From Acaryochloris marina MBIC11017 (GTDB lineage: Bacteria; Cyanobacteriota; Cyanobacteriia; Thermosynechococcales; Thermosynechococcaceae): a stretch of 32,000 nt of DNA. The notes under the pieces were generated by a model. That model did not search any database. It had not been told where the DNA came from and was given only the letters and a program-made list of their open reading frames with translations. Below are positions 12,170 to 32,000 of this stretch, in pieces (positions within the stretch are counted from its first letter, which is position 1; the number at the start of each line of letters is the position of its first letter). The position numbers and the translations under genes were made by a program. Location of the stretch: positions 3,000,001-3,032,000 of the forward strand of contig NC_009925.1 of assembly GCF_000018105.1 (NCBI RefSeq), given 5' to 3'.

Positions 12170-12244
12170 TTTAAGTTTGCTCTTGGCTTATCGCGTTGTT
12201 TTTGGCTGATTTAGTTTTTTTATTTCTGTTTTGGAGAAGAATGC

Positions 12245-13843
12245 ATGTTAACGGAAATGTGGTCCTTTAAGGGCCGCTACAAAATTCTACACATGACTTG
12301 GTTTGCGTTTTTCTTGACCTTTGTGGTCTGGTTTAACTTTCCCCCCTTCGCCACCACAATCGCTCAAGATTTAGGGCTTTCCAAGCCGCAAATGGGCACC
12401 ATTGGTCTTTGTAATGTTGCCCTCACGGTCCCTGCCCGGATCATTATTGGCATGGTCTTGGACCGTTATGGCCCCCGCTTGACCTATTCCTTACTGTTAA
12501 TGTATGCGGCGATTCCTTGCTTAATTTTTGCCACAGCTCAAGGATTCACCCAGCTCGTGATCGCTCGTTTGCTGATGGGGATTGTCGGTGCAGGATTTGT
12601 AATTGGTATCCGCATGACCGCTGAGTGGTTCCCTCCCAAAGAAGTTGGAACAGCCGAAGGCATCTATGGTGGATGGGGCAACTTTGGTTCTGCCTTCTCT
12701 GCATTCACCATGGTTTTGTTTGCCACTGCATTAAGTTTCATTCCTGGTGCTTTCAACTTTGGTGAAGCTCAAACCTTTACCGTTTTGGGTCTATCATTTT
12801 CCAGTGCTGTTTTGAACTGGAGAGCGGCCATTGCGGGTTCAGGTATTATTGCTGCCATTTATGGCTTTATCTACTACGCCAATGTTCGCAATACTCCGCC
12901 AGGAAAAGTCTATCAACGGCCTAATAGCGCTCGGGGCTTAGAAGTCACATCAGTTCGAGACTTTTACTTCCTGATGTTGATGAATATTCCTCTAACTGCA
13001 ATCTTGATGGTGTTGGCTTGGCGCTTAAATAAGGTCAATTTCTTGACACCGTCCGCCATGTATATCACATGGGTTGCTCTCTTGGGTCTATACGCTTTCC
13101 AGTCTTACAACTGCTGGAGTGCCAACAAAGAATTACTGTCAGGCCGAAAGCGCTATGCTCCTGAAGATCGTTATAAGTTCAAGCAAGTTGCCATCCTGGA
13201 ACTGACTTATATTGTTAATTTCGGTTCTGAGCTCGCAGTGGTCACCATGCTCCCTGCTTTCTTCGAAGGGACCTTCGGTTTAGACAAAGCCATGGCCGGT
13301 ATTATCGCTTCTAGCTATGCCTTTATGAACTTGGTCTCTCGTCCAGGTGGTGGCATTATCTCCGACAAGATGGGCAGCCGGAAATGGACAATGGTTATTC
13401 TCACTGCCGGTATGGGAATTGGCTATCTGTTGATGAGCCAAGTCACTAGTAACTGGTGGTTGCCTGGTGCTGTTCTATTGACCATGGCCTGCTCTTTCTT
13501 CGTGCAAGCTTCTGAAGGATCGACCTTTGCGATTGTGCCCTTAGTTAAGCGTAGAGTCACAGGTCAAATTGCGGGTAACGTCGGTGCTTATGGTAATGTT
13601 GGCGCTGTTGCATATTTGACCACTCGCCTTCTATTTGTAGATGGCGCTGGTGCAGAACCTAACATGGCTGCCGTTAACTCTAGCTTTTTCCAAGTCCTGG
13701 GTACTACCGGTTTGATTGTTGCTTTCCTCTGTATCTTTTTCCTAGAAGAACCCCAAGGCTCTTTTGCCGAACACCATGAAGGTGAGACAGAAGCATCATC
13801 AACCAATAGTCCAATCGGTGCAAAGTATCCTACAACTCCTTAG
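12245..13843 (+). CDS. nrtP: MFS nitrate/nitrite permease (NarK/NrtP type)
   Basis: 532 aa with 12 TM helices. The N-terminus MWSFKGRYKILHMTWFAFFLTFVVWFNFPPF is typical of cyanobacterial NrtP. Nitrate-signature-like GGWGNFG and GNVGAYGNVG motifs are present. It lies 75 nt downstream of nirA with no terminator between. Confidence 0.92.
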   Translation: MLTEMWSFKGRYKILHMTWFAFFLTFVVWFNFPPFATTIAQDLGLSKPQMGTIGLCNVALTVPARIIIGMVLDRYGPRLTYSLLLMYAAIPCLIFATAQGFTQLVIARLLMGIVGAGFVIGIRMTAEWFPPKEVGTAEGIYGGWGNFGSAFSAFTMVLFATALSFIPGAFNFGEAQTFTVLGLSFSSAVLNWRAAIAGSGIIAAIYGFIYYANVRNTPPGKVYQRPNSARGLEVTSVRDFYFLMLMNIPLTAILMVLAWRLNKVNFLTPSAMYITWVALLGLYAFQSYNCWSANKELLSGRKRYAPEDRYKFKQVAILELTYIVNFGSELAVVTMLPAFFEGTFGLDKAMAGIIASSYAFMNLVSRPGGGIISDKMGSRKWTMVILTAGMGIGYLLMSQVTSNWWLPGAVLLTMACSFFVQASEGSTFAIVPLVKRRVTGQIAGNVGAYGNVGAVAYLTTRLLFVDGAGAEPNMAAVNSSFFQVLGTTGLIVAFLCIFFLEEPQGSFAEHHEGETEASSTNSPIGAKYPTTP

Positions 13844-13890
13844 GCCTAAATCAGTCCATCACGGACCACAAAATTAGGTTTTCACTCACA

Positions 13891-13934
13891 AAAGACCGCA
13901 GATTCATCGACTGAATGAACCTGCGGTCTTTTTT
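13891..13934 (+). terminator. rho-independent terminator after nrtP
   Basis: AAAGACCGCAG (13891-13901) pairs perfectly with CTGCGGTCTTT (13921-13931). The loop has an inner ATTCA/TGAAT stem. A T-run follows at 13929-13934. Confidence 0.8.
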
Positions 13935-14121
13935 ATATCAAGCCAAATTATTTTTGGATTTATGGCGTGAGAAGCCACACATTGGACGCCTATTATTAGA
14001 GGATTCATTTAGACCCAATCAAAGATTATTATCATTACCTCAAGATTTCTAAAATGGACAGATAATTCATGCGATTCATGCATATAATCCATGTGAATTA
14101 TTCATAATTCTTGTCCTTATT

Positions 14122-14135
14122 GTACGAAGAGATAC
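14122..14135 (+). promoter_or_regulatory. NtcA binding box upstream of the porin gene
   Basis: GTACGAAGAGATAC is a perfect GTA-N8-TAC. TAAACT (TAN3T) at 14158-14163 begins exactly 22 nt downstream. The predicted TSS is near 14170, about 65 nt before the ATG at 14235. Confidence 0.65.
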
Positions 14136-14234
14136 AAATCTAGGAATAGGTATTCATTAAACTGAGCGGACGTTGAACGGAGGTTCTCCCTACATGTTCA
14201 GCTCATTAATTCGGTGTGAGGTTACTGAAACAAT

Positions 14235-16046
14235 ATGTCCAAATTTTTATCCTGGTACCGGCTGCTTTTAAGTACCAGTATGTTGGGAATCGCAATGGTG
14301 CATTGCATCCCTGCTCAGGCAGTTACGGAGACATCAAGCGCTGATGTCACTGCAGAAGAATTGGAGATCACTCCCAGTGGTGATGCCCCTTCAGCAGTAG
14401 AACTACCGTCTACTGACGGCGAACTGGAACTTGCCCAAGCAGTGGAACCATCCACCTTGGCAACACCCCCGACTTCCATTACAGACCTTTCAGGGAATCA
14501 AAGCGACCCCTATTTCCCTGCAGACCCCAGTTTGCATGCCTCTGAGGCATCCTTAGGTCAGGTCACTTCTGTTTCCCAATTATCAGATGTTCAGCCGGAT
14601 GACTGGGCCTTCCAAGCGATCCAATCCTTGGTGGAACGCTATGGTTGTGTCGCCGGTTATCCCAACGGCACCTTCCGTCCGAGCCGAGCCATGTCCCGTC
14701 GTGAAGCGGCTGCCTTGGTCAACGCTTGCTTAGATAACCTCAGCAATCGATTTGCTACCAAAGAGGATCTAGATGCCCTCAAAGCTCTGCAAGATGAGTT
14801 TGCCGCCGAACTGGCCACCCTCAGAGGTCGGGTAGACGGTTTAGAAGCAAGAGTCGCAACTGTAGAAGCTCAGCAGTTCTCAACCACCACTAAATTAAAC
14901 GGGGAAGCTATTTTTGCGTTTAGTGGTGTCGCTGGTGACAATGCCACCACTGGTGCTGACATTAGTGGGCGCGTCTCCTTAAACCAGAGAACCCGTCTCA
15001 ACTTTATTACCAGTTTTACCGGTAAGGATCGGTTATATACCCGACTACAAACCTCTAATCGTCCCGTCAACTTTAGTGATGGTGCCATCCCTGGAATTAT
15101 TGATAATACAGGGACTTTGCAAACTCGGATTGCCTTTGACACGGGCAATACCAACAACAACGTTATCCTCGATCGCTTAGACTACAAATTCCCCATTGGT
15201 GACAAGCTAAATGTCACGGTCTTTGCAAATGCGGCCTTCCACCACTACTACGCAACCACTGTTAACCCTTACTTTGAGGGATTCGGTGGTGGTAAAGGTG
15301 CGCTTTCCTTCTTTGGTGAGCGTAACCCCATCTACCGCATTGGTACGGTTGCGATTCCCAGTGTTGCGGGTGTCGGCACCTCCTACATGTTCAACAAGGA
15401 AAATGATTTTCGGCTGGACTTAGGCTACTTAGCAGGTCGTGCTAACCAAGCGACAGCAACAACTCTGGCCAACGGTGAAAATGAAGGTGGGTTATTTGGG
15501 GGAACCTATAGCGCGTTAGCCCAGCTCAGCATCAAACCATCAGAAGGGTCTCAAATCGGCTTAACCTATATTCGTAATGAAGCCCCTGATGGCTTAATGA
15601 GATTTGGCACTGGAACGGTCTTTTCTAATAATCCCTTTGGCGGTGCCAATAACATCACTGGTGATTCCTTCGGCTTCGAAGGAACGCTCAAAGTAACAGA
15701 TTGGCTAGCGGTAGGGGGTTGGTTTGGCTACACGATTGCTCGTGAAGACAATACCAATAACAAAGCAGATATCATCAATGCTGCAATTAACTTTGCCTTT
15801 CCAGACCTAGGCATTGAAGGCGCCACTGGCGGTCTCATCTTTGGTGTCCCACCAACAGTCATTGATAACGATGTTGCTGCTCGGGAAAACCCAGATCAGA
15901 CCTATCATCTAGAAGCACTGTATTCCTTCCCAGTTAATGATTTCATCACCATTACACCGGGTGTTATTTACCTCATTGATCCGGAAGGTAACTCTGCCAA
16001 CAGTGACATCTTAGTGGGAGTCATTCGAACTACATTCAAGTTCTAA
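14235..16046 (+). CDS. outer-membrane porin: signal peptide + SLH domain + coiled coil + OprB-like beta-barrel
   Basis: Signal peptide is ...MVHCIPAQA-VTE. The SLH motif is DVQPDDWAFQAIQSLVERYGCVAGYPNGTFRPSRAMSRREAAALVNACL. The coiled coil is LQDEFAAELATLRGRVDGLEARVATVEAQQFS. The C-terminal half has alternating-pattern beta strands and ends in the terminal aromatic ...RTTFKF. Confidence 0.88.
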   Translation: MSKFLSWYRLLLSTSMLGIAMVHCIPAQAVTETSSADVTAEELEITPSGDAPSAVELPSTDGELELAQAVEPSTLATPPTSITDLSGNQSDPYFPADPSLHASEASLGQVTSVSQLSDVQPDDWAFQAIQSLVERYGCVAGYPNGTFRPSRAMSRREAAALVNACLDNLSNRFATKEDLDALKALQDEFAAELATLRGRVDGLEARVATVEAQQFSTTTKLNGEAIFAFSGVAGDNATTGADISGRVSLNQRTRLNFITSFTGKDRLYTRLQTSNRPVNFSDGAIPGIIDNTGTLQTRIAFDTGNTNNNVILDRLDYKFPIGDKLNVTVFANAAFHHYYATTVNPYFEGFGGGKGALSFFGERNPIYRIGTVAIPSVAGVGTSYMFNKENDFRLDLGYLAGRANQATATTLANGENEGGLFGGTYSALAQLSIKPSEGSQIGLTYIRNEAPDGLMRFGTGTVFSNNPFGGANNITGDSFGFEGTLKVTDWLAVGGWFGYTIAREDNTNNKADIINAAINFAFPDLGIEGATGGLIFGVPPTVIDNDVAARENPDQTYHLEALYSFPVNDFITITPGVIYLIDPEGNSANSDILVGVIRTTFKF

Positions 16047-16078
16047 AAACCTTCACACAATAGATAGAAGTTGATGAC

Positions 16079-16116
16079 CTAGGGAGCAAAATCACATTTG
16101 TTCCCTAGTTTTTTTT
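16079..16116 (+). terminator. rho-independent terminator after the porin gene
   Basis: CTAGGGAGCAAA (16079-16090) pairs with TTTGTTCCCTAG (16097-16108) with one mismatch and a 6-nt loop. Eight T residues follow (16109-16116). Confidence 0.85.
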
Positions 16117-16239
16117 GTACAAGAGATAGCGTTTTTTCCACACTGCAGCATTAGACAAGTTGCAATTTAGACTTTCTATCAGGGAATGATTAAATTGCAT
16201 AGATACTATGTTGAGAGTGCATTAGATCGATCCGTAACC

Positions 16240-16253
16240 GTAGCCAATCTTAC
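16240..16253 (+). promoter_or_regulatory. NtcA binding box upstream of narB
   Basis: GTAGCCAATCTTAC is a perfect GTA-N8-TAC, followed by A. An AT-rich -10 candidate region lies 22-27 nt downstream (GATTAT 16276-16281, TAGAGT 16281-16286). It sits downstream of the porin terminator, so narB needs its own promoter. Confidence 0.6.
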
Positions 16254-16338
16254 AATTCTCGATTGAAATATTAATGATTATAGAGTTGGATAAGTATTTC
16301 AATTTTTTTCTCTGCTCCTTGCTTAATTCAAAACAGTT

Positions 16339-18564
16339 ATGACTAAACCCGTTAAAACTTTATGTCCATACTGTGGTGTAGGCTGTGGATTAGAAGTCTT
16401 ACCTCCGGCCTTACCCGGTAAGCCTGTCAATCGAGATAGTGCTGGAACGCCCATCTGGCGAGTACGTGGTGATCAAGCCCACCCTTCCAGCAAGGGCCAA
16501 GTCTGTGTCAAAGGAGCCACTGTCACTGGTGCATTAGATAAAGATCGGCTGCGCTATCCGATGATGCGAGATTCTCTCGACCAACCGTTTCGCCAGGTCA
16601 CTTGGGAAGCCGCGTTACAACGGGTGGTGAGGGAACTTAAGACAGTACATGCTAATCAAGGTCCTGACGCCATTTGCATGTATGGATCCGGGCAGTTTCA
16701 GACGGAAGATTATTACATTGCTCAAAAATTACTGAAAGGGTGCCTAGGCACCAATAATTTTGATGCCAACTCTCGTCTTTGCATGTCTTCAGCCGTGGCT
16801 GGGTATATCCAAAGTTTTGGCTCTGATGGTCCACCGGCTTGCTACGACGATCTGGAACAGACAGACTGCGCCTTCTTAATCGGGACCAATACGGCGGAAT
16901 GTCATCCGATTGTATTTAATCGGTTGCTCAAGCATCACAAGAAAAATCGCCACGTCAAAATGATTGTAGTTGACCCTAGGCGCACTAAAACTGCAGAAAA
17001 GGCCGATTTACATCTGGCGATTAAACCCGGTACCGATATTAATTTGCTCAATGGCATTGCCCATTTGCTGATGCGGTGGGGCAAGTTTGACTCTTTATTT
17101 ATTGATGAATGTACGTCGGGTTTCGCCAGTTTTGCTGGCGTTATTAGCCAATATCCACCGGAATTAGTTGCCCGAGCCTGTGGCATTCGCGTTGATGAAC
17201 TCGAAAAAGCAGCGCGTTACTGGAGCGAATCCCAGCGAGTCCTGTCTCTGTGGTCCATGGGCATTAATCAATCTTCAGAAGGAACGGCAAAATGTCGCAC
17301 CATCATCAATTTGCATTTGATGACGGGCACTATCGGTAAACCTGGCTGTGGACCCTTTTCTTTAACCGGGCAACCCAATGCCATGGGGGGGCGCGAAGCA
17401 GGTGGCTTAGCTCATATTCTGCCTGGATACCGGGTCGTTAAAAATCCCCAACATCGACAAGAAGTGGAGCAAGCTTGGCAACGCCCTCCAGGCAGTATCT
17501 CTTCTCAGCCCGGTTTAGCCGCTTGGGATATGATTCTGGGACTAGAAAACCAAAGTGTAGGGGTTTTCTGGGTGGCTGCCACCAATCCTGCCGTTAGTAT
17601 GCCGGATATTAAGCGCACTAAAGCTGCTTTACTCAAATCCCGGTTTACGATCTGTCAGGATGCTTACTATCCAACCGAAATGGCCGACTATGCCCATGTT
17701 CTTCTACCTGCGGCTCAGTGGGGTGAGAAAACAGGGATTATGACCAATTCTGAGCGGGTGGTGAACTACTGTCCAGCCTTTCGAGAGCCCGTGGGAGAAG
17801 CCCGAGCGGATTGGGAAATTTTTGCTGAAGTCGGGCGACGCTTGGGATTTGAAAAGGAGTTTGCCTTTGCCAATTCCGCTGAGGTCTATGCCGAATTTGT
17901 GCAGCTAACCCGCGATCGCATCTGCGATATGAGCGGCCTCAGTCATGACCTACTGAAAAACGGCCCTATTCAATGGCCTTTCCCTGCTTGTGCCGTGGGC
18001 GATACTATCGATGCCACCGCAACGGGTAAACGCCTCTATACCAATCACCGATTTCCTACCGAAGATGGCCGGGCCAAGTTCTCTGCCTTCCATGCCAAAG
18101 GATTGGCCGAAGCCCCTGATCCAAATTATCCGTTTGTGCTGACCACAGGTCGACTCTATGGCCATTGGCATACCCAAAGCCGTACGGGACGGATTGAGAA
18201 GGTGGCAGGGATGTACCCCAATCCCTTTGTCGAGATCCATCCTCGGGATGCAGCTCGCATCGGTATTCAGGAAGGGGAAGTACTGGAGGTGCGATCGCGC
18301 CGGGGTTTCGCCCGCGTCCCTACCAAAATTACGAAAGCGATTGCTCCTGGCACTGTCTTTATCCCCATGCATTGGGGAGCCTTATGGGCAAAACATGCTG
18401 AGGTGAATGCACTCACCCATCCAGAAGTCTGCCCCATTTCCTTAGAACCCGAGTTAAAAGCTTGTGCCGTACAGCTGATCCCTACTAAAAATTTATCCAT
18501 TGACTCTGACGAAGATACTGCCGATCAACTGGCTTCATCCCTAGTCACTCATTCTCATCCTTAG
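16339..18564 (+). CDS. narB: assimilatory ferredoxin-dependent nitrate reductase (Mo-bisMGD)
   Basis: The N-terminal 4Fe-4S motif is CPYCGVGCG...C(VKG). The rest shows molybdopterin oxidoreductase core and C-terminal MGD-binding (barrel) region features. The 741 aa length is typical of cyanobacterial NarB. Confidence 0.95.
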
Positions 18565-23486: not shown

Positions 23487-23843
23487 ATGAATCTAGAAGA
23501 GATTTTTCAAAACGATCCCAACATTCAATCGTTTACTGCAGGACATACCCTGTTTACTGAAGGAGATCCTGGTGAGTATATGTATGTGGTCATTACTGGC
23601 AACCTAGAAATTCAAGTTCGCGGACAAGTTATGGAAACCGCTGTCCCCGGCGATATTTTGGGAGAGATGGCTTTAATTGAGCATGGTACTCGTAGTGCAG
23701 CTGCGATCGCACGCACCGATGTCACCTTAGTCCCCATTGATCAAAAGCGATTCACATTTTTGGTGCAAGAAACTCCGTATTTTGCCCTCCATGTGATGAA
23801 AGTCTTAGCTGATCGCCTAGGGAAAATGAATAAGATTGTGTAG
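23487..23843 (+). CDS. stand-alone cyclic-nucleotide-binding domain protein (no DNA-binding or other output domain)
   Basis: 118 aa. The cNMP-binding beta-roll motifs are FTEGDPGEYMYVVITG and GDILGEMALIEHGTRSAAAIA (the GE...R[ST]A phosphate-binding cassette). Confidence 0.8.
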   Translation: MNLEEIFQNDPNIQSFTAGHTLFTEGDPGEYMYVVITGNLEIQVRGQVMETAVPGDILGEMALIEHGTRSAAAIARTDVTLVPIDQKRFTFLVQETPYFALHVMKVLADRLGKMNKIV

Positions 23844-23875: not shown

Positions 23876-24292
23876 CTATAAATTGAGCCATTTTTCAAAC
23901 TTTCCTAGCATCTTCCGTAACGACTTCATCTCGACCAATTTATAGGCTTTGGCCACAGAAACCACCCGCCTTTCCCGCTCATGATCCTCTTGCCATGCTC
24001 GGTGCAGCTGAGTGACCACCAAGGGAAACACCTGCACCGTACAGGTACTCCCCCATTTTTGATGAGCGTAGGTGCCTAAGGGTTCAGTCGCAATCAAGCC
24101 TTCAATCCCCGCTTCTTCCCAGGCCTCTTTCGCTGCAGAATCCCAGGCCGTCAGATCCGGTTCAATTTCTCCTTTAGGGATAATCCACCGACCTCGCTTA
24201 CGGGATGTAATTAAGACCACCTTCAAACCATCTGGCTGAATCAGGTAAGGCAGGGCAGCAGAGTGCTGATAGCGCCCCTCGACTGGTGTCAT
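23876..24292 (-). CDS. NUDIX hydrolase
   Basis: Nudix box GEIEPDLTAWDSAAKEAWEEAGIEG fits GX5EX7REUXEEXGU with K in place of R. Length is 138 aa. It is on the same strand as the SGDEF-EAL gene and 79 nt downstream of it. Confidence 0.85.
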   Translation of the reverse strand: MTPVEGRYQHSAALPYLIQPDGLKVVLITSRKRGRWIIPKGEIEPDLTAWDSAAKEAWEEAGIEGLIATEPLGTYAHQKWGSTCTVQVFPLVVTQLHRAWQEDHERERRVVSVAKAYKLVEMKSLRKMLGKFEKWLNL

Positions 24293-24371
24293 AACAGGTT
24301 ATTTACAAGGTATTAAGATGATCGACCGCTGTCTAAGAGCGTAGCGAGAACTATCGTCTTTGCCAACTGTT

Positions 24372-26117
24372 TCACCAATCTTTGAGACCGTTCGTCATCT
24401 TTTCCTGCAGCAGCGCCACCGCCATTTGTCCATCGACCGGTTTCGAGAACAAATGACCTTGCGCTTCTTGGCAGCCCATATCTAGCAAAAAGCGCCGCTG
24501 TACCGGAGTTTCAACACCTTCAGCCGTCACACTGAGCCCCAGATCATGGGCTAACTCAATGATAGAGCGCACTAGATCGAGATTATCCACATCCATCCGT
24601 TTAATAAAGGACCGATCAATCTTTAACGTATCCACCGGTAATTGCTGCAAATATTGCAACGATGCATAGCCTGTCCCAAAATCATCGATACAAAGGCTAA
24701 CCCCCATATTTTTGAGCTGATGAAGCGTATCGATCGCCGCTTGGTCTCGACTAAACAACACACTCTCCGTAATTTCAATCATGAGCTGTTGCGGAGAAAT
24801 GCGGGTTTCCAGCAACACTTGCCGGACTTGCGACACTAAATCGGGTTGATCAAACTGCTTCGCCGAAAAATTGACGCTAATCGAGAGGGGTTCTTCCGTA
24901 AATCGTCGCCACTGCTGAATGCGAAAACAGGCTTCTTTCAACATCCACTGATCGATCTCGAAAATCAGGCCCGTTTCTTCGGCAATTGGAATAAACTCTA
25001 GAGGAGACACCATGCCTAGCCTGGGATGCATCCATCGAACTAAGGCCTCAAAGCCAATAATTCTTTGATCGGCCAAACAAACAATCGGCTGAAAGAATAA
25101 ATTCAGTTCCTGCTCACGCAGCGCTCGCTTCAAATCATTTTCAAGCTGCAGCAGTCGTACCGCTCGCGCATGCATGGTGGGATCAAATACCACATAATTG
25201 GCTCGCCCCAGTCCTTTGGCATAACTGACCGCTGTATTGGCATCTCGAAGTAAATCTTCAGCCCGGTCATACTCCATCAAGGTTAAAGCAATCCCGACAC
25301 TGGCCGTTATAAATAACTCTTGACCACTCAATCGAAATGGGGTTTGGAACTCTGCCGAAATTTGGTTGGCGGCTAAGATAGCTGTGCTCGTCGCGTCAAT
25401 TTCATCCAACAGAATGATAAATTCATCTCCACTCAAACGGGCGAAGATATCAAATTCATCCAAGCAATTTTTCAAGCGCCAAGCAATGGCAATCAGGAGC
25501 TGATCCCCTGCCAAACGGCCAAAACTATCATTAATACTTTGAAAGCGGTCAATATTGACGATCAAAATGGCAAAGTGATAGCTCTTTTTGCGCTTAAACC
25601 GTTCAAAAGCATGGGCCAGCTGAATCAGGAAATAGGTTTGATTCGGCAGCCCCGTCAAGGCATCATAAAACGTCGTCTTGAGAATGCTTTCGCTCGTTTG
25701 TTTCCGCTCTTCAATAAAATCTAATGTGCTTTCCCGCGCTTTTTGAATAAAGGAGAGGAGTTCAATATATTCCCCCTCTGAGGCCTTAATCAGGAGGATT
25801 TTCTGAGATCCTAAATTGAGGGCTGCCGCCTCCAAATGAATCTCTTGGTCACGATGATCGGTTTCACACCACATGCCCGACTTATACTGACCTGGCTGAT
25901 TGTCATGCCAAAACTCCATCGCATCCACCAGAAAGTTAGCCAGAAAAGGCAATTTTCTTTCGATCCAAGCCACATCTAAGGTGAGTTGGACCTGGGGATA
26001 GAGTTTAGTGAACCAGGAGGGCGCTGTTCCTACAATGGTTAAGGAATGCTCATTAACCCGCTCTAAAATTAAAATATCTAAAGCAGAGAGTACATTTGCA
26101 GGAAGCGATTCCGTCAT
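24372..26117 (-). CDS. c-di-GMP turnover protein: novel N-terminal domain + GGDEF-type domain (SGDEF variant) + EAL phosphodiesterase domain
   Basis: GGDEF domain: YDALTGLPNQTYF...RLSGDEFIILL, with no RxxD I-site (DEFD instead). EAL domain has all hallmark motifs: GFEALVRW, NFSAKQ, EITES, DDFGTGYASL, KIDRSF, EGVET, QGHLFSKP. The first approximately 150 aa have no recognisable family. Confidence 0.9.
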   Translation of the reverse strand: MTESLPANVLSALDILILERVNEHSLTIVGTAPSWFTKLYPQVQLTLDVAWIERKLPFLANFLVDAMEFWHDNQPGQYKSGMWCETDHRDQEIHLEAAALNLGSQKILLIKASEGEYIELLSFIQKARESTLDFIEERKQTSESILKTTFYDALTGLPNQTYFLIQLAHAFERFKRKKSYHFAILIVNIDRFQSINDSFGRLAGDQLLIAIAWRLKNCLDEFDIFARLSGDEFIILLDEIDATSTAILAANQISAEFQTPFRLSGQELFITASVGIALTLMEYDRAEDLLRDANTAVSYAKGLGRANYVVFDPTMHARAVRLLQLENDLKRALREQELNLFFQPIVCLADQRIIGFEALVRWMHPRLGMVSPLEFIPIAEETGLIFEIDQWMLKEACFRIQQWRRFTEEPLSISVNFSAKQFDQPDLVSQVRQVLLETRISPQQLMIEITESVLFSRDQAAIDTLHQLKNMGVSLCIDDFGTGYASLQYLQQLPVDTLKIDRSFIKRMDVDNLDLVRSIIELAHDLGLSVTAEGVETPVQRRFLLDMGCQEAQGHLFSKPVDGQMAVALLQEKMTNGLKDW

Positions 26118-27115
26118 TGCATTGGGTGATAAGAATATAAGCTCGGGCTGTTAGTCAGAGAACTGCCAGCAAGAGACGTGGGTTGAAAAGACTTCTGCCT
26201 TTTATCTAGCCCATCAAAGGTCTGTTTGTCGATGATCAAGGTCCCACCTTCAGAATTTTCATTTAAATTCACTGCCATATCCATCGGTTGTCCCATCACC
26301 GTTAAGGTTTTGCCAAATCCAACCTGTAACAGCCCAATCGTTACCATTCCCGTTGTTACCACCAAGGCACATTGAGCGGATGGGCCAATGGGGGGCTGAC
26401 GCTCCTCAAATAGTTGGAGAATACGTACACTCGCATCTATCGCTTGCATTGAGGGACTACGGGTTGAGGGCAACACGCCAAACACCGCCACAATAGAGTT
26501 GCCAATATTTTGATGAATTAACCCCCCTTCATCCAAAATGGAAGGGGAAATGGCTGATAGGTATGCATCTAAGATTTTAAGGGGATTAGAGGTAACCGTT
26601 TTATCGTCTAGGCCCTCGATATTACAACATTTTACGACTAAAATACTGAGGGATTTTTGTTCGCCTGCAGGCCGAATATCGAGAAAGTTTTCTGCCACAA
26701 TCTCTGATTGCATCAAGTGCCCGATTGAGCGAGCCTGCTTCCGCCGCAACAGGCTGAGATCATTCACCTTTTGCTGAATCAGAACATGCTCTTCATTTTC
26801 AGAGGTGGCATCAAAGAGAATGACCCAATCATGCTGGTCTTCTACGAAGAGGTGGACTTCAGCAATAACATCTTGGTCTAGCTGCAGGAAGGGAATGTGC
26901 ATCGCCGCTTCTTGCAAAGGCAATAAACCCGCCAAGAAGAAAATTTGCTCATCAATCGACTGGTGTAGCTTTAAAGGAGCTAAACCATACCGCTCACAAG
27001 CCCCACCAAAAGCCAGTAATTCACCTGTTTTATTGACTTGCAAATAGGCCGGAAAGCGATCTCGAACGATTGTAGAACAAAGGAATGCCACAATCGGTTG
27101 TGGGAGATTTAACAT
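26114..27115 (-). CDS. class III nucleotidyl-cyclase-homology (CHD) protein with substituted catalytic residues, plus an N-terminal domain paralogous to that of the downstream SGDEF-EAL protein
   Basis: By-eye alignment to the adenylate/guanylate cyclase consensus: LSILVVKCCNIEGL aligns to vtvlFaDIvGFT; GGLIHQNIGNSIVAVFG aligns to gG.v.K.iGDavmavFG; VVTTGMVTIGLL...TVMGQPMDMAVNLNE aligns to GihtGpv..G.iG...ytv.GdtVN.AsRlE. The stop overlaps the next gene's start (ATGA at 26114-26117). Confidence 0.6.
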   Translation of the reverse strand: MLNLPQPIVAFLCSTIVRDRFPAYLQVNKTGELLAFGGACERYGLAPLKLHQSIDEQIFFLAGLLPLQEAAMHIPFLQLDQDVIAEVHLFVEDQHDWVILFDATSENEEHVLIQQKVNDLSLLRRKQARSIGHLMQSEIVAENFLDIRPAGEQKSLSILVVKCCNIEGLDDKTVTSNPLKILDAYLSAISPSILDEGGLIHQNIGNSIVAVFGVLPSTRSPSMQAIDASVRILQLFEERQPPIGPSAQCALVVTTGMVTIGLLQVGFGKTLTVMGQPMDMAVNLNENSEGGTLIIDKQTFDGLDKRQKSFQPTSLAGSSLTNSPSLYSYHPMQ

Positions 27116-27121
27116 GGGTAA

Positions 27122-27613
27122 CTAAATCATCATTTGCGCCAATTTTATAAAGCACTCTTCTACCCCTAATCCAGTCCTTGCACTCCCAAGACAGTAAGTC
27201 CATTGCCGTTGGGATAATTCTTCGAGATCGTCCTCTCCGATTTCCCAATCTTGGCTTAGATCATACTTATTGAAAATTGTAATAAATGGCACTTTGCCAA
27301 TGGTGTCTTCCACTTTAGTTTGTAATTGGAAGACTGTTCCTAATGTATCCCGTCGAGTACCATCTACCACCAAAATATAGGCGGCTGATCCTCGCAAGTA
27401 CGACATTCTGATTTTTTGAAACTCATCTTCACCATGAATATCCCATAGAATTAAATTTAAGTCTTGTCCGCCAACCGCCACACTTTTTTTATCAATTTTG
27501 ACGCCAACAGTCGTCTGATATTTATCAGAATAAATACCCTGAACATATCGAGCGACAAGGCTCGTTTTCCCAGTCGCAAATGCACCGATCATACAAATCT
27601 TTTTCTGGAGCAT
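27122..27613 (-). CDS. Ras/Rab-like small GTPase
   Basis: 163 aa. G1 is GAFATGKTS, G2 is YQTTVGV, G3 is WDIHGED (DxxG, with Glu where Ras has Gln61), G4 is NKYD, and G5 is GSARTGLGVEECF (compare Rab SAKTG.NVEEAF). Only 6-nt gaps separate it from both neighbouring genes. Confidence 0.85.
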   Translation of the reverse strand: MLQKKICMIGAFATGKTSLVARYVQGIYSDKYQTTVGVKIDKKSVAVGGQDLNLILWDIHGEDEFQKIRMSYLRGSAAYILVVDGTRRDTLGTVFQLQTKVEDTIGKVPFITIFNKYDLSQDWEIGEDDLEELSQRQWTYCLGSARTGLGVEECFIKLAQMMI

Positions 27614-27619
27614 AAGCTA

Positions 27620-29374
27620 TCAATCAGCGTCCGATGGTTGAACAAAAATAACTTTAAAAGTAACCTTACGATTGGATTTAGAGATTTTAGCTGAATCTAA
27701 CTTTTCTACTGCAGGAGGCTCAACACTCACTGCCTGAAAAAGGTTTTTATCAATGCCCTGCTTGGATAGCAGGGAAATAATCGCCTTAGCACGAGTTTCC
27801 CGGACATAGAGATTGATCAACTCAGATCCACTAGTATCGGTATGCCCTTCAACGAGAACAGCAACGGTTTGGTTGATGGTTTTAGCTGTTTTAGCCAGTT
27901 TTTTAATGTCTTCAGCCACGGTTTTAAGCTTGACATCTTGTTGAGGGACCAACTGAGCATTTTGGGTAAAGAAGATGGTGTGAGCCTCAAGTTTGGCCTT
28001 AATGTCTGCAAGAGCACCTGCTTCGACAGGCACAATTTGTTGAGTGTTGAATTGGGTCACATTAGGCAATCGCAAGGCTAGCTGTTTTGCTTCCGTGATC
28101 CAAGATTGCGGGGCAGTCCCTGAGGCTTGAATCGCCCCATTAGCATCAACTTTCAGCTCAACTGTTTCTGGGGGCTGCAACAGCGATATCACTCTGGATT
28201 CAATAAATTCAGTATCGAAGGATAGATAAGGTTCCCAACTAAAAGCAACCTTGTTTGGATCTAGATCTGTCTTTGATATCAAATCAGTGGGCTTAGACGC
28301 CAGGGGATCTTTTAGGCCAGAGATCACATATTTACCGTCCTGTTTTTTGGTTTGCAAGACGACGATACCGGATTCTCGATTCAGTTGATCGACAAAGCTT
28401 TGAACTTGGTTTCGCTCATAGTTAGACAAAAAGCCCCAGACCCCTAATCCTAAAATGAGAATTCCAGCTGCTCCGCCAATCCATTTCAACGGAGAAGAGC
28501 GCTTCTTTTTCGTTTGATATTGGGACTGTAAACATTCTTCTAGATAAGGCTGGCTCGGTTCAAAGGCACTGCTATCCCCCTGAAACTCGTGAAGCTGACG
28601 CTCTTGGACCAGGTGAATTCGCTCCAGAGCATTTTCCATCATTTGCCGCAGTTTGCCAGGTGGGTTACCCCGAATAACACAAGCAATAATGGCTTGAGGG
28701 CCTTCATTCACCCAAATGGTTAACTCTCCGACTTGCAAACTCCCTAAGGCTTCGTCACTCACACTAAATGAGTCGCGAACAAAATCTTGAATCGCGGTAA
28801 ACATAGCAGAGACTAAATCTGCATCCTGAGCAGCAGCCGTTGCGGCAGCAAGATGCTGGAGAACTAAGCCTGAGGATTTATGGATGAGAAAAACTTGTTC
28901 GACCTGATAGACAAGGGTACGCAACAACAAAACTTCAGCAAAAGATTTCCCTGTACGCCAGGCTTCAAAGCGCCAACTGAGACTTTGAGGAGAGAGGCTA
29001 TGTTCTAGACTCTGGTTCAGGGAATCGGTTAAATTCTGGATGGCCGCTGCGATAGCTTTCCGTATCGCTGGTCCCATAATCGGGAACAGGGCTTCAGAGA
29101 GAATATTTTGATCGGTATTCACAGACGATTTAATCGCATGCTCCACCGTTGGCATCACAGCTTCAGATACAGTCTCATCACTCGTTTTGAGGGTGAGTTG
29201 GATCGCTTCGGGTAAAACCCGACTTACGTCTTCCGATCTCAACTGGGCATTCTCGAATCGTCCTTTCAGATCTGGCCCAATTAGCAAACTTCGCAGCTCA
29301 TTCAATTCGTTAGCTTGACCAGGTTCTTCTGGATAAGCAGCATCCCGATTGGCATTAGTAGGTAAATTACTCAT
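27620..29374 (-). CDS. bitopic membrane protein: cytoplasmic N-region (with a Roadblock/LC7-like alpha/beta module) + 1 TM + periplasmic BON-like segments + C-terminal OmpA/MotB-like peptidoglycan-binding domain
   Basis: TM helix KWIGGAAGILILGLGVWGFL (aa about 296-316). OmpA_C-like end: IFFTQNAQLVPQQ...VAVLVEGHTDTSGSELINLYVRETRAKAIISLLSKQGI...SNRKVTFKV. The cytoplasmic module is aa about 155-255: VFLIHKSSGLVLQHL...DADLVSAMFTAIQDFVRDSF...LQVGELTIWVNEGPQAIIACVIRG. Confidence 0.75.
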   Translation of the reverse strand: MSNLPTNANRDAAYPEEPGQANELNELRSLLIGPDLKGRFENAQLRSEDVSRVLPEAIQLTLKTSDETVSEAVMPTVEHAIKSSVNTDQNILSEALFPIMGPAIRKAIAAAIQNLTDSLNQSLEHSLSPQSLSWRFEAWRTGKSFAEVLLLRTLVYQVEQVFLIHKSSGLVLQHLAAATAAAQDADLVSAMFTAIQDFVRDSFSVSDEALGSLQVGELTIWVNEGPQAIIACVIRGNPPGKLRQMMENALERIHLVQERQLHEFQGDSSAFEPSQPYLEECLQSQYQTKKKRSSPLKWIGGAAGILILGLGVWGFLSNYERNQVQSFVDQLNRESGIVVLQTKKQDGKYVISGLKDPLASKPTDLISKTDLDPNKVAFSWEPYLSFDTEFIESRVISLLQPPETVELKVDANGAIQASGTAPQSWITEAKQLALRLPNVTQFNTQQIVPVEAGALADIKAKLEAHTIFFTQNAQLVPQQDVKLKTVAEDIKKLAKTAKTINQTVAVLVEGHTDTSGSELINLYVRETRAKAIISLLSKQGIDKNLFQAVSVEPPAVEKLDSAKISKSNRKVTFKVIFVQPSDAD

Positions 29375-29561
29375 TGACTATAGAACTGCAAAGACTAGAT
29401 GGGCTGACAGAGCATGCGCATCAGATCTGCCATCATTATTGATATTGCTATAGTAAAGGCCACAACGATAAACAACTTGAAGATTTATTGCGTAGCATCT
29501 AGGCTCGCCTGCTACTACGTCCGACAAACCCCGCAAGATGCACGGACCATCATCCTATAAC

Positions 29562-30191
29562 CTATGAATTTGAGCGAATATTCAGGGCTAATTGGCTAAA
29601 GAGATCCGCTAATTGATCACGGTCTTGAGCATCAACCGACTGCAGAGACTGAACTTCACGTTCTAATAAAGCTTTCAGTTCAGCATGCCTATGGTTAAAG
29701 TCTGTCCCCAAAGAGGTGACTTTTTCCTCCAAAGTAGACAGGATACTCAGTCGTTGCCGCTCCACTTCTTCACCCAGTTCTCTAAGCTGACCACTGGCCG
29801 TTGATATCCCACTTTGATAAGTAGCTTCTAGATCCGATACAGACGTAGTTTGAGACGCATGATTGGATTGCACAATCTGGGCTAAGGTTTGCAAATCATT
29901 GCGAATCGCTGTTTCTAGGGCTTGCAGCCGTTGATCCATTTGATCACGGATGTCAGCACATTCTTGATTCAGTCGATTTTCGAGCTGGTCGAGCTTTTGT
30001 TCCTGGCTATGTACCTGCTGGCCAAATAACAAATCCCTAATCTTATTGAGGGTATTAAGATCAACCTCTTCATTGGGAGAAGCATTGACCAATACACCCT
30101 CATTTGAATGCTGATCACCATCTACTGGCTGCTCAGAAGATGATGTTGCTAAAGCTGAAGTTATCTGATCATTAGAGATGGTCATGGCCAC
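29562..30191 (-). CDS. coiled-coil protein, unknown function
   Basis: 209 aa. A polar/acidic N-terminus is followed by long heptad-like Q/E/L-rich helices (QEQKLDQLENRLNQECADIRDQMDQRLQALETAIRNDLQTL...). Start is GTG 30191, with ATG 30185 as an alternative. Confidence 0.5.
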   Translation of the reverse strand: MAMTISNDQITSALATSSSEQPVDGDQHSNEGVLVNASPNEEVDLNTLNKIRDLLFGQQVHSQEQKLDQLENRLNQECADIRDQMDQRLQALETAIRNDLQTLAQIVQSNHASQTTSVSDLEATYQSGISTASGQLRELGEEVERQRLSILSTLEEKVTSLGTDFNHRHAELKALLEREVQSLQSVDAQDRDQLADLFSQLALNIRSNS

Positions 30192-30388: not shown

Positions 30389-31198
30389 TCACTTAGCGAC
30401 TAGCACTAGATGATAGCGATAGAGGGCCACCGGTTGATTCAGGGCTTGAAAATAGTTGGGATCCTGGGGGGATAAGTAGATCGCCGTCACTTGATCCGCG
30501 TCGATTTGGGCCGGACTTGTGTTGATGTAGCGGTACGACGTCGTATTTTCGACTTGGTTGAGATACAGTTGGGCGCTGCTGCGAAACTCTTGCTGAAACA
30601 GTTCGCTGGCAATCCAGGTATCGGTCTTAGCATCAAATTCAGTGGTGCGATCGCTAATGGTCGATACGAGTTGTCGCCCCTGATTGAGCACCGTCGTTTG
30701 GCGATTGGGAAAGCGAGGATCAACTTTCACCGTTTGCACAGCCGCTTCACCGAGGTAAGCAGCAGCTAAACTCCGACCATTGAATGCTAAGTCAGCAATC
30801 ACCGAAGGTTTACGGGACAACAACTCCCAAGGGGATGCATTGGCCAGCACTTTTGCCTTTAAAGGCGTCCGTTCTTCGACAAAGCGCACCGCAAAGGTCA
30901 CGGGCTGATCTAACAAGCGCTCATTATCGGCATAGCCGGGGGTAACTAAGTCAGGCGCTAAGGGAGCCGCCAGATCCACGAGGGTACTGGTAACCTGCCA
31001 ATCTCCTAAAAACCAGTCGGGATAGATCAAGTCGCCAGACGCCGGTTTCAGCACCGGCTTTCCTTGCCAATCGGGAAAGGCTGCTAGGCGTTCTGTTAAA
31101 GGACTAGCCAGCCCCGGTAAAGACCAGCAGCAGAGCAAAAGTGCCAGACAAATACCCCACCCTTTCACTCTATAAGACTGCCAATCTTTACCGTTCAC
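30389..31198 (-). CDS. conserved hypothetical secreted/periplasmic protein
   Basis: 269 aa with an N-terminal signal peptide (WGICLALLLCCWSLPGLASP). No catalytic motif recognised. It starts 11 nt downstream of the thiC stop on the same strand. Confidence 0.55.
   Translation of the reverse strand: MNGKDWQSYRVKGWGICLALLLCCWSLPGLASPLTERLAAFPDWQGKPVLKPASGDLIYPDWFLGDWQVTSTLVDLAAPLAPDLVTPGYADNERLLDQPVTFAVRFVEERTPLKAKVLANASPWELLSRKPSVIADLAFNGRSLAAAYLGEAAVQTVKVDPRFPNRQTTVLNQGRQLVSTISDRTTEFDAKTDTWIASELFQQEFRSSAQLYLNQVENTTSYRYINTSPAQIDADQVTAIYLSPQDPNYFQALNQPVALYRYHLVLVAK

Positions 31199-31209: not shown

Positions 31210-32000
<791 letters not shown>

Follow-up and report, generated by a model that had tools for sequence, protein, structure and literature searches.

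A gene cluster on the minus strand of a 32,000-nt stretch of Acaryochloris marina MBIC11017 DNA (contig NC_009925.1, positions 3,000,001 to 3,032,000; this whole stretch is called the window, and its numbering is used throughout) represents the Group 1 Rup module, a bacterial small-GTPase system, in its Acaryochloris form, which has five genes rather than four. In order of transcription, these encode:

29562-30191, minus strand: DUFY, a 209-aa cytoplasmic coiled-coil protein (open reading frame, ORF; only weak coiled-coil-type matches in Pfam)
27620-29374, minus strand: P1, the 584-aa DUFX protein, with DUFX, transmembrane (TM), BON-like and OmpA parts; a bitopic inner-membrane protein, N terminus in and C terminus out
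27122-27613, minus strand: Group 1 Rup small GTPase, 163 aa (Pfam Ras 4e-29)
26114-27115, minus strand: P3, the 333-aa pseudo-cyclase protein, with an N-A module and a degenerate cyclase-homology domain (ORF)
24372-26117, minus strand: P4, the 581-aa SGDEF-EAL protein, with an N-B module, an SGDEF domain and an EAL domain (ORF)

We consider it reasonably probable that P1 is an anchored longin/Roadblock scaffold that controls Rup, and that Rup-GTP acts on N-A and N-B and so sets the turnover of cyclic di-GMP (c-di-GMP). An envelope-anchored small-GTPase switch with a c-di-GMP output had been suggested in a first-pass annotation of the window, and as a general idea it appears reasonable.

Rup, a Ras superfamily GTPase of unknown function in prokaryotes, was defined by Wuichet & Søgaard-Andersen (2014, Genome Biol Evol 7:57; PMC4316618). 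In their description, Group 1 Rup proteins have a G3 motif without the catalytic Gln, and they are encoded in a four-gene neighborhood that consists of a coiled-coil DUFY, a DUFX protein that often carries a TM segment and an OmpA domain, Rup, and a signaling output (PMC4316618). The output is typically a GGDEF-EAL fusion or a histidine kinase, and its N-terminal region contains an invariant Gln, which the authors speculated is supplied in trans (PMC4316618). The system was known from computer analysis, and no member had been experimentally characterized as of 2014. Table S2 of the same paper lists A. marina MBIC11017 AM1_2998 as '<Rup<DUFX:OmpA<DUFY', a 163-aa Rup of Group 1, and we found that the AM1_2998 locus is the orthologue of the window locus. 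Thus, the cluster is not the undescribed system for which the first-pass annotation took it, since the neighborhood was published as Group 1 Rup in 2014 with AM1_2998 named in the list (PMC4316618).

The defining features of Group 1 were all found in the window, namely the GTPase motifs, the Gln-less G3, the DUFY and DUFX neighbors, an output with the invariant Gln, and orthology. The likeness extends to the same GTPase subfamily, the flanking DUFY and DUFX:TM:OmpA genes, and a GGDEF-EAL output with the N-terminal invariant Gln. The differences are that the paper described four genes and left DUFX and the N-terminal region of the output unassigned, whereas here DUFX is predicted to have a longin/Roadblock fold; that two N-terminal modules, N-A and N-B, are told apart; and that most loci here have an extra gene, which encodes N-A alone or N-A with a mostly dead cyclase domain. 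As far as could be found, the longin/Roadblock assignment, which comes from modeled structure, is new relative to PMC4316618. An N-A-dead-cyclase protein ahead of an N-B-GGDEF-EAL protein is a variant absent from that paper, and this arrangement was also found in A. thomasi and in one Thermosynechococcaceae genome. The new leads are the longin/Roadblock assignment, the two-module output logic and a motif common to DUFY and DUFX.

The genes are closely packed. As read from the sequence, 6 nt separate the P1 and Rup genes (TGA-tagctt-ATG) and the Rup and P3 genes (TAG-ttaccc-ATG), and the P3 and P4 genes overlap by 4 nt (ATGA); these junctions and the gene coordinates are as first annotated. The DUFY-P1 gap is 187 nt, and P4 is followed after 79 nt by a Nudix gene. 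The earlier statement that there is no room for independent promoters is correct for the gaps only, as promoters within upstream coding sequence are possible. Promoter and terminator consensus scans gave nothing above the shuffled expectation, and Rfam and tRNA scans of the window gave no matches. The P1, Rup and P3 genes (26114-29374, minus strand) share a reading frame, with exactly 6 nt after each stop codon; this spacing may be incidental, because it differs in Calothrix.

A scan with a DUFX alignment, one genome per species, showed that a DUFX relative is encoded in the genomes of at least 576 species. Synteny was determined by tblastn with the window's domains in the best 80 loci from one-genome-per-species contigs, and only loci with enough flanking sequence were counted (L001 to L091 below are labels of related loci or contigs). 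The best 80 loci came from Cyanobacteria (mostly Nostocales), Acidobacteriota, Sericytochromatia and others. DUFY was upstream of DUFX in 71 of 71 loci, Rup was downstream of DUFX in 76 of 77, and the next gene after Rup encoded N-A or N-B in 65 of 66, with both modules present in 45 of 66. The gene arrangement is far beyond chance, and the conserved synteny for which the first-pass annotation had proposed to look does exist. That annotation placed the coiled-coil gene correctly but treated it as a mere neighbor; with its presence in all 71 loci, it is a core component. A further search for homologues extended the range to Nitrospirota, Desulfobacterales, Latescibacteria and Phycisphaerae, and the module was also found in Thermodesulfobacteriota and in a planctomycete, whose locus has the same gene order with a Pfam-detectable cyclase as its last gene.

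The GTPase, its membrane partner and DUFY

Rup matched Pfam Ras (4e-29, residues 5-162) and Roc (1e-22), and its best PDB match was Rab23 (5.6e-25), in agreement with the first description of the protein as Ras/Rab-like. All five GTPase motifs could be read: G1 GAFATGKT, G2 Thr35, G3 DIHGE, G4 NKYD and G5 SAR. Among 80 Rup orthologues, the position of Ras G12 is Phe in 75 and Tyr in 4, that of G13 is Ala in all 80, that of Q61 is Glu in 78, and Thr35 and Asp57 are invariant. By analogy to Ras biochemistry, the bulky residue 12 and the missing Gln suggest that Rup would have poor intrinsic hydrolysis and would be incompatible with a classical Arg-finger GTPase-activating protein (GAP). No other bacterial GTPases are as similar to eukaryotic Rab, Ras, Rho and Ran as the Group 1 Rup proteins.

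P1 is approximately 100% (rounded) identical to an OmpA family protein of Acaryochloris sp. CCMEE 5410 and 84% identical to A. marina proteins. The parts of P1 and the related motif in DUFY are as follows:

29276-29305, minus strand: motif LNELRSLLIG, P1 residues 24-33, of a pattern common to DUFX and DUFY
about 30021-30050, minus strand: motif LNKIRDLLFG, DUFY residues 48-57, of the same pattern
28535-28990, minus strand: predicted longin/Roadblock-like alpha/beta core of DUFX, P1 residues ~129-280 (AlphaFold2 model, Foldseek)
28424-28489, minus strand: predicted TM helix, P1 residues ~296-317, hydrophobic stretch LKWIGGAAGILILGLGVWGFL, preceded by a cytoplasmic basic KKKR
28025-28372, minus strand: predicted periplasmic BON-like beta-alpha repeats, P1 residues ~335-450 (predicted local distance difference test, pLDDT, ~90)
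27623-28024, minus strand: predicted OmpA-like peptidoglycan-binding domain, P1 residues ~451-584 (Pfam OmpA 4.6e-7; GHTD and RxxRA kept)

In a full-length AlphaFold2 model of P1, the periplasmic half was confident and the cytoplasmic half was of low confidence, and a fold search with this model returned matches for the OmpA domain only and nothing for the cytoplasmic half. P1 residues 20-295 were re-predicted alone with an alignment of 110 sequences from several phyla, which gave a DUFX core with pLDDT values of 83-97 except for a central helix at 54-63. All of the top 50 Foldseek PDB matches of this core are longin or Roadblock domains of small-GTPase regulators (probability 0.98-1.0; target-normalized TM score up to 0.70), and they include adaptor protein (AP) complex sigma subunits, TRAPP subunits, Sec22b, MglC, LAMTOR, RagA/C C-terminal domains and an Asgard Roadblock protein. 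Many of the matched structures were solved with a GTPase, such as Mon1-Ccz1-Ypt7 (5ldd), MglA-MglB (3t12), Fuzzy-Inturned-Rab23 (9rs9) and Rag-Ragulator. The DUFX core is thus predicted to adopt a longin/Roadblock fold, an alpha-beta-beta-alpha-beta-beta-beta(-alpha) sandwich, and the Roadblock-like cytoplasmic module that had been proposed for P1 is borne out at the level of the modeled fold, without support from sequence; no Robl_LC7 match was obtained with Pfam in P1 or any neighbor even at E<=10. We also determined the ratio of nonsynonymous to synonymous substitution rates (dN/dS) against two closer Acaryochloris contigs, as distant orthologues are saturated at synonymous sites. The DUFX core, at 0.026-0.028, is the most constrained part of P1.

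The C-terminal half of P1 could be assigned by both sequence and structure. Pfam OmpA matched residues 473-548 with 30.5 bits (cut-off 27.2), NCBIfam matches were of the Pal/YiaD/MotB type, and Foldseek matched the domain to Pal, the OmpA C-domain, MotB-C and YfiB (E 1e-7 to 1e-5; target-normalized TM score 0.6-0.8). R528 and A529 are invariant, and GHTD is found in the window and most aligned homologues. From its fold and its conserved Asp (GHTD) and Arg (RA), which correspond to the stem-peptide contacts, the domain is predicted to bind peptidoglycan. A long helix (298-333) in the model overlaps the predicted TM segment, and the earlier view of P1 as a bitopic protein with a periplasmic OmpA domain is upheld. 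For the BON-like region, the top Foldseek match was the BON+OmpA protein Rv0899 (2l26), and the dual-BON protein DolP also matched; the planctomycete homologue of P1 has extra BON-like copies and a faint Pfam BON match.

An OmpA-like domain couples envelope state to c-di-GMP enzymes in YfiBNR and comparable envelope sensors, and YfiB was among the fold matches of P1 (4zhy, 6ikk). YfiB, however, is an outer-membrane lipoprotein; its action on the cyclase YfiN passes through YfiR in the periplasm, and no GTPase is involved. MotB differs from P1 by its acidic TM residue and its MotA partner: the TM stretch of P1 contains no Asp or Glu, and a MotA-like gene was found neither in the window nor in related loci. 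A stator of the MotB/ExbD/ZorB type was ruled out for P1 on these two grounds.

DUFY and the N terminus of DUFX contain the same motif, [LIVM]xx[LIVM]Rx[LIVM][LIVMF][LIVMF]G, and a ..RL-containing helix comes after it. The motif is present in 79 of 79 DUFY proteins and in at least 61 of 85 DUFX N termini, and in the six-frame translation of the window it occurs only twice, once in P1 and once in DUFY. This pattern may represent a common docking or pairing element.

Output modules and the degenerate cyclase domain

Downstream of Rup, P3 and P4 consist of the following domains:

26711-27115, minus strand: N-A domain (IQQxxN), P3 residues 1-135; invariant G38, Y43, L61, G63, P66, W97, Q114, Q115 and N118
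26201-26668, minus strand: degenerate class III cyclase-homology domain, P3 residues ~150-305 (PDB phmmer)
25698-26117, minus strand: N-B domain (IQKAR), P4 residues 1-140; invariant P33, W35, F62, W70, S80, A97 and Q125, with R128 at 99%
25203-25670, minus strand: GGDEF domain with an SGDEF motif and DEFD in place of the RxxD I-site (Pfam 2.5e-40)
24438-25139, minus strand: EAL domain with canonical catalytic motifs (Pfam 2.4e-77)

N-A and N-B each end in a helix with invariant residues, Q114, Q115 and N118 in N-A and Q125 and R128 in N-B, where Q125 is invariant in 69 sequences. These residues extend the single 'invariant glutamine' of PMC4316618. An exhaustive phmmer search yielded 573 N-A clusters at 50% identity, and N-A was nearly always N-terminal. 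In the best 150 cluster representatives, the partner domains identified by Pfam were kinase (28), Guanylate_cyc (25), SpoIIE (4), sigma54 activator (3) and GGDEF (1); custom hidden Markov models found a cyclase-like domain in 49 and an N-A-N-B tandem in 28. In most Nostocales loci, N-A is encoded on its own (125-137 aa), and it is also fused to PAS, N-B and DUFX. N-B heads histidine kinases, hybrid histidine kinases, sigma54 activators and GGDEF-EAL proteins. Fusions include an N-A-N-B-GGDEF-EAL protein (L084, 10332-12566) and, among the N-A cluster representatives, P0372 (N-A, cyclase-homology domain, N-B, HisKA and HATPase), P0266 (N-A-DUFX-OmpA) and P0259 (a tandem N-A-N-A). These natural, Rosetta-stone fusions suggest joint action of P3 and P4 as a unit, with N-A working beside DUFX. 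Tests for homology of N-A and N-B to the DUFX core were negative, and strong PDB matches of one alignment profile (A3) were discarded, as they were due to the sigma54 domains of two alignment members. In the Pyrinomonadaceae (Acidobacteriota) loci L080, L081, L082 and L088, the sole gene after Rup encodes a 292-aa N-A-PAS protein with no recognizable enzymatic output; the output may be encoded elsewhere or recruited by PAS.

P3 had no Pfam or NCBIfam match, with Guanylate_cyc below every threshold. Its residues 150-304 matched PDB class III cyclases by phmmer (2w01, 1.3e-5; 6fht, 1.9e-5; 3r5g, 3.9e-5), and relatives with the P3 architecture match Pfam Guanylate_cyc. We aligned P3 with Cya2 and same-architecture relatives and compared six canonical positions: the two metal-binding Asp, the substrate-specifying Lys/Glu and its partner, and the transition-state Asn and Arg. 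P3 has K/Q/N/T/D/N where the canonical residues are D/(K,E)/D/x/N/R. Thus, P3 residues 150-305 are homologous to the catalytic domain of class III cyclases such as Cya2, CyaB and CyaC, and an N-A-headed Sericytochromatia relative (L061) keeps the canonical site (D/K/D/T/N/R), but the metal-binding, substrate-specifying and transition-state residues of P3 have all been replaced. Because all six key residues are replaced in P3 and canonical in L061, the label 'pseudo-cyclase' is justified, and the domain is predicted to be catalytically dead, as the first-pass annotation had held. We found no report of this pseudo-cyclase in the searchable literature, which is thin in subscription journals.

Loss of the active site is common in this family. 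Among the 49 N-A-cyclase-domain representatives, only 5 have retained the full set of five canonical residues, and 30 have at most one of them, in a census that depends on the alignment of divergent sequences. The planctomycete N-A-cyclase (L008, 11246-12298) matches Guanylate_cyc at 1e-45, yet it has Glu at both metal-binding Asp positions. The dN/dS values of the degenerate domain are 0.043 and 0.032 for the two contigs, and the last 28 residues of P3 have a dN/dS of ~0.5. Judged from sequence, the domain is a conserved and selected, presumably non-catalytic part of P3, typical of the N-A-cyclase family. Class III cyclase domains are obligate dimers, and for this reason the dead domain most plausibly serves as a dimerization or adaptor scaffold. 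The first-pass annotation had proposed the dead cyclase domain as a possible GTPase effector or adaptor; coupling of P3 to the system most likely occurs via the N-terminal N-A and not via the cyclase domain. N-A occurs alone in most Nostocales and on many other outputs. The analogy that had been drawn to the activation of adenylyl cyclase by eukaryotic Ras received no specific support.

The designation of P4 as an SGDEF-EAL enzyme agrees with its Pfam matches and with the SGDEF motif read in P4. Its EAL motifs (EAL, N, ExxE, DDFGTG, K, EGVE, Q) are all present and conserved in orthologues, and its best NCBIfam matches are c-di-GMP phosphodiesterases; the domain is predicted to be an active c-di-GMP phosphodiesterase. 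Apart from the window, only its nearest relatives, L090 and L091, have SGDEF. In the Acaryochloris clade, the orthologues L001, L010 and L011 carry GGDEF, suggesting that SGDEF is a recent change, and L010 keeps RxxD. Activity is reported for some enzymes with an SGDEF motif. Values of dN/dS are 0.038 and 0.020 for GGDEF and 0.023 and 0.032 for EAL.

Proposed mechanism, alternatives and related systems

From the component list, synteny, fusions, residue conservation, selection and predicted folds, we infer the interactions, the direction of regulation and the input signal as follows. The periplasmic BON-like and OmpA-like part of P1 would tether the protein to peptidoglycan. Triggered by an envelope or periplasmic cue, the longin/Roadblock domain of P1 would bind Rup and set its nucleotide state or location, acting as an exchange factor for guanine nucleotides (GEF), a GAP or a platform; such a role is proposed because longin/Roadblock domains perform it for MglA, Rab7, Rab1, Rab23 and Rag, and binding to Rup would agree with the conserved adjacency of the two genes. 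DUFY may assist via the shared LRxLLxG motif. Rup-GTP would then engage the N-A/N-B pair, which is thought to act as one unit because the two modules are fused in many species, and the activity of the attached enzyme would change, mainly c-di-GMP hydrolysis and possibly synthesis. The invariant Gln/Asn of N-A or Gln/Arg of N-B could complete the Rup GTPase site in trans, so that the effector would switch the signal off; this step is proposed because Rup has no catalytic Gln and no room for an Arg finger beside Phe12. The dead cyclase domain would hold N-A next to the N-B output.

Several points weigh against this mechanism. The longin/Roadblock assignment comes from a predicted structure with a low-confidence central helix, the Foldseek E-values of the DUFX core are modest (4e-4 to 8e-3), and sequence searches of P1 for Roadblock, with Pfam at E 0.1 and E 10 and with phmmer against the PDB, returned nothing. 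N-A and N-B had no Pfam or PDB sequence match, and homology between the two was not detected (BLASTP negative; hhalign probability 1%). Their Gln-bearing helix could be a signaling or coiled-coil linker, and in the planctomycete cyclase, the corresponding segment has a faint match of the HNOBA type. The near-invariant Glu at the Q61 position of Rup might act in cis. In addition, the P4 sequence is compatible with a net synthase as well as a net hydrolase, and co-transcription of the cluster is deduced from gene spacing only. Finally, no later experimental work on 'Rup GTPase', Npun_F1891-3, AM1_2998, Ava_0879 or sce5816 was found in the searchable literature, the coverage of which is thin in subscription journals.

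Some of these points would fit a reversed wiring, to which we assign a clearly lower probability than to the mechanism above and which we nevertheless regard as possible. Here, DUFX would be a GAP, the role that MglB has toward MglA, or a mere membrane anchor, N-A and N-B would be pure effectors or an exchange factor, and the Gln would be structural. MglB Roadblock dimers are among the Foldseek matches of DUFX (3t12, 3t1r, 1j3w), the Gln segment lies in the helix that links N-A and N-B to the output and corresponds to the segment of the planctomycete cyclase with the faint HNOBA (signaling-helix) match, and the Glu found in 78 of 80 Rup proteins could act in cis. However, MglB is not among the best fold matches of DUFX, which are longin domains from GEFs and adaptor subunits, and the Gln is kept in the stand-alone 125-137-aa N-A proteins, which have no output.

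Like MglA/MglB of Myxococcus and Thermus, the Rup module combines a Ras-superfamily GTPase with a Roadblock-type regulator, and MglB structures are among the DUFX matches. Unlike MglA, Rup falls outside the MglA family, keeps the G3 Asp and resembles Rab/Ras (PMC4316618); its partner is a membrane-anchored multidomain protein that Robl_LC7 does not detect, and the output is an enzyme, not motility machinery. Membership in the MglA/MglB module was rejected because Rup groups with Rab/Ras and no Robl_LC7 match was obtained. The actinobacterial conservons (CvnA-D/Mfp), an analogy already proposed by the authors of PMC4316618, likewise join a small GTPase to a Roadblock-fold protein and a sensor kinase in a multi-gene module. 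They differ in that their GTPase belongs to the MglA family, their MglB homologue is soluble and their kinase is a membrane protein; they include a DUF742 protein, and they have no OmpA anchor, coiled-coil DUFY, N-A or N-B.

The GTPase-DUFX pair also resembles the eukaryotic Rab/Rag longin/Roadblock complexes (Mon1-Ccz1, TRAPP, CPLANE Fuzzy-Inturned, Ragulator, GATOR1 and FLCN-FNIP). Among solved structures, Rup is nearest to Rabs, the modeled DUFX core matches these complexes best, and both would provide a membrane-attached platform that controls a Rab-like switch. The relation of DUFX to them is structural only (8-24% identity), with no evidence here of heterodimeric longin pairs; the Rup module would be anchored to bacterial peptidoglycan, and its outputs are second-messenger enzymes or kinases. 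We regard it as rather unlikely that Rup and the DUFX longin/Roadblock domain are the bacterial counterpart, by common descent, of the eukaryotic Rab and longin GEF pair (Mon1-Ccz1, TRAPP, CPLANE), linking peptidoglycan and periplasm to outputs via N-A and N-B acting in trans. If this were true, the switch and its regulator fold would have entered eukaryotes together from bacteria, and the longin/Roadblock link would bear on the origin of eukaryotic GTPase regulation.

It is improbable that the module is instead a spatial or polarity organizer like MglA/MglB, which would mark peptidoglycan sites for motility, division or filament functions with the enzymes as cargo. A peptidoglycan-anchored scaffold with a coiled-coil protein recalls polar landmark systems, the eukaryotic GTPases closest to Rup (Rab, Ras, Rho) and the longin/Roadblock partners act in localization, and the module is abundant in filamentous gliding Nostocales. 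Its downstream partner, however, is always a signaling enzyme or transcription activator with a dedicated N-terminal module, and no syntenic motility or division genes were found in the loci examined.

A similarly small probability applies to an active role of the degenerate cyclase domain in P3, either as a sensor that binds a nucleotide (ATP, GTP, cAMP or c-di-GMP) or as the heterodimer partner of an active cyclase from another locus, with which it would form one asymmetric active site. Class III cyclases function as dimers in a head-to-tail arrangement, and mammalian adenylyl cyclases include heterodimers in which one site is dead. Strong purifying selection (dN/dS 0.03-0.04), the range of relatives from canonical (L061) to partly degenerate, and this dimeric precedent would agree with such a role. 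However, the metal-binding and transition-state positions are both lost, so that neither half of a heterodimer would be complemented; no second cyclase gene is syntenic in the window or related contigs; and 30 of the 49 relatives keep at most one canonical residue. Least likely by far, and rejected here, is a Zorya-related anti-phage defense system with a ZorB-like anchor, a ZorA-like coiled-coil tail and effectors: in the fold search with the full-length P1 model, ZorAB ranked 48th, and PADLOC gave weak matches (ZorA tail for DUFY, 2e-4; ZorB for the OmpA domain, 1.6e-6; PycC for P3, 2.6e-4), but these cover only generic coiled-coil, OmpA and cyclase folds, no MotA/ExbB-type channel protein, nuclease or other defense effector was found, and the vertical chromosomal context beside housekeeping genes such as thiC, with stable synteny in at least 576 species, is unlike a mobile defense island.

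The preferred mechanism, a P1 scaffold that controls Rup and through it N-A and N-B, turns a ten-year-old in silico observation into testable hypotheses that name specific residues. The obligatory membrane partner of Rup is predicted to have the same fold as regulators of small GTPases in eukaryotes and Myxococcus. In cyanobacteria, c-di-GMP governs motility, aggregation and biofilm formation, and in Acaryochloris, the Rup system would connect envelope state to c-di-GMP. The same core is carried by the tractable hosts Nostoc punctiforme and Anabaena PCC 7120.

Neighboring genes

The Nudix gene downstream of P4 is not considered part of the system:

23876-24292, minus strand: Nudix protein, 138 aa (Pfam NUDIX 5e-11)

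Among 89 loci screened, a Nudix gene was found in L010 only; it is also present in L090 and L091, and all three loci belong to the A. marina clade. Unrelated genes occupy its place in the other Acaryochloris-like loci and in those of A. thomasi and Nostocales, and its synteny within the A. marina clade only ruled it out as a component. Convergent with it is a gene for a 118-aa stand-alone cyclic nucleotide monophosphate (cNMP)-binding protein (23487-23843, plus strand; Pfam 8.9e-20), which is present in L091 and absent from L090; a link between this protein and the dead cyclase domain would be speculative.

Upstream of DUFY are DUF6816 and thiC genes (30389-31198 and 31210-31974, minus strand), and both were found in L001-L003, L090 and L091. 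DUF6816 is also upstream of DUFY in L004/L012, L010 and L011, and the two genes are absent from the other cyanobacterial loci examined. The window end cuts thiC, and any thiamine pyrophosphate (TPP) riboswitch would fall beyond it. Elsewhere in the window, a nitrate-assimilation-type cluster (10232-18564, plus strand) encodes a major facilitator superfamily (MFS) transporter, an OprB-family porin with an SLH domain, a molybdopterin oxidoreductase, and a 645-aa nitrite/sulfite reductase with a fused C-terminal 2Fe-2S ferredoxin domain.

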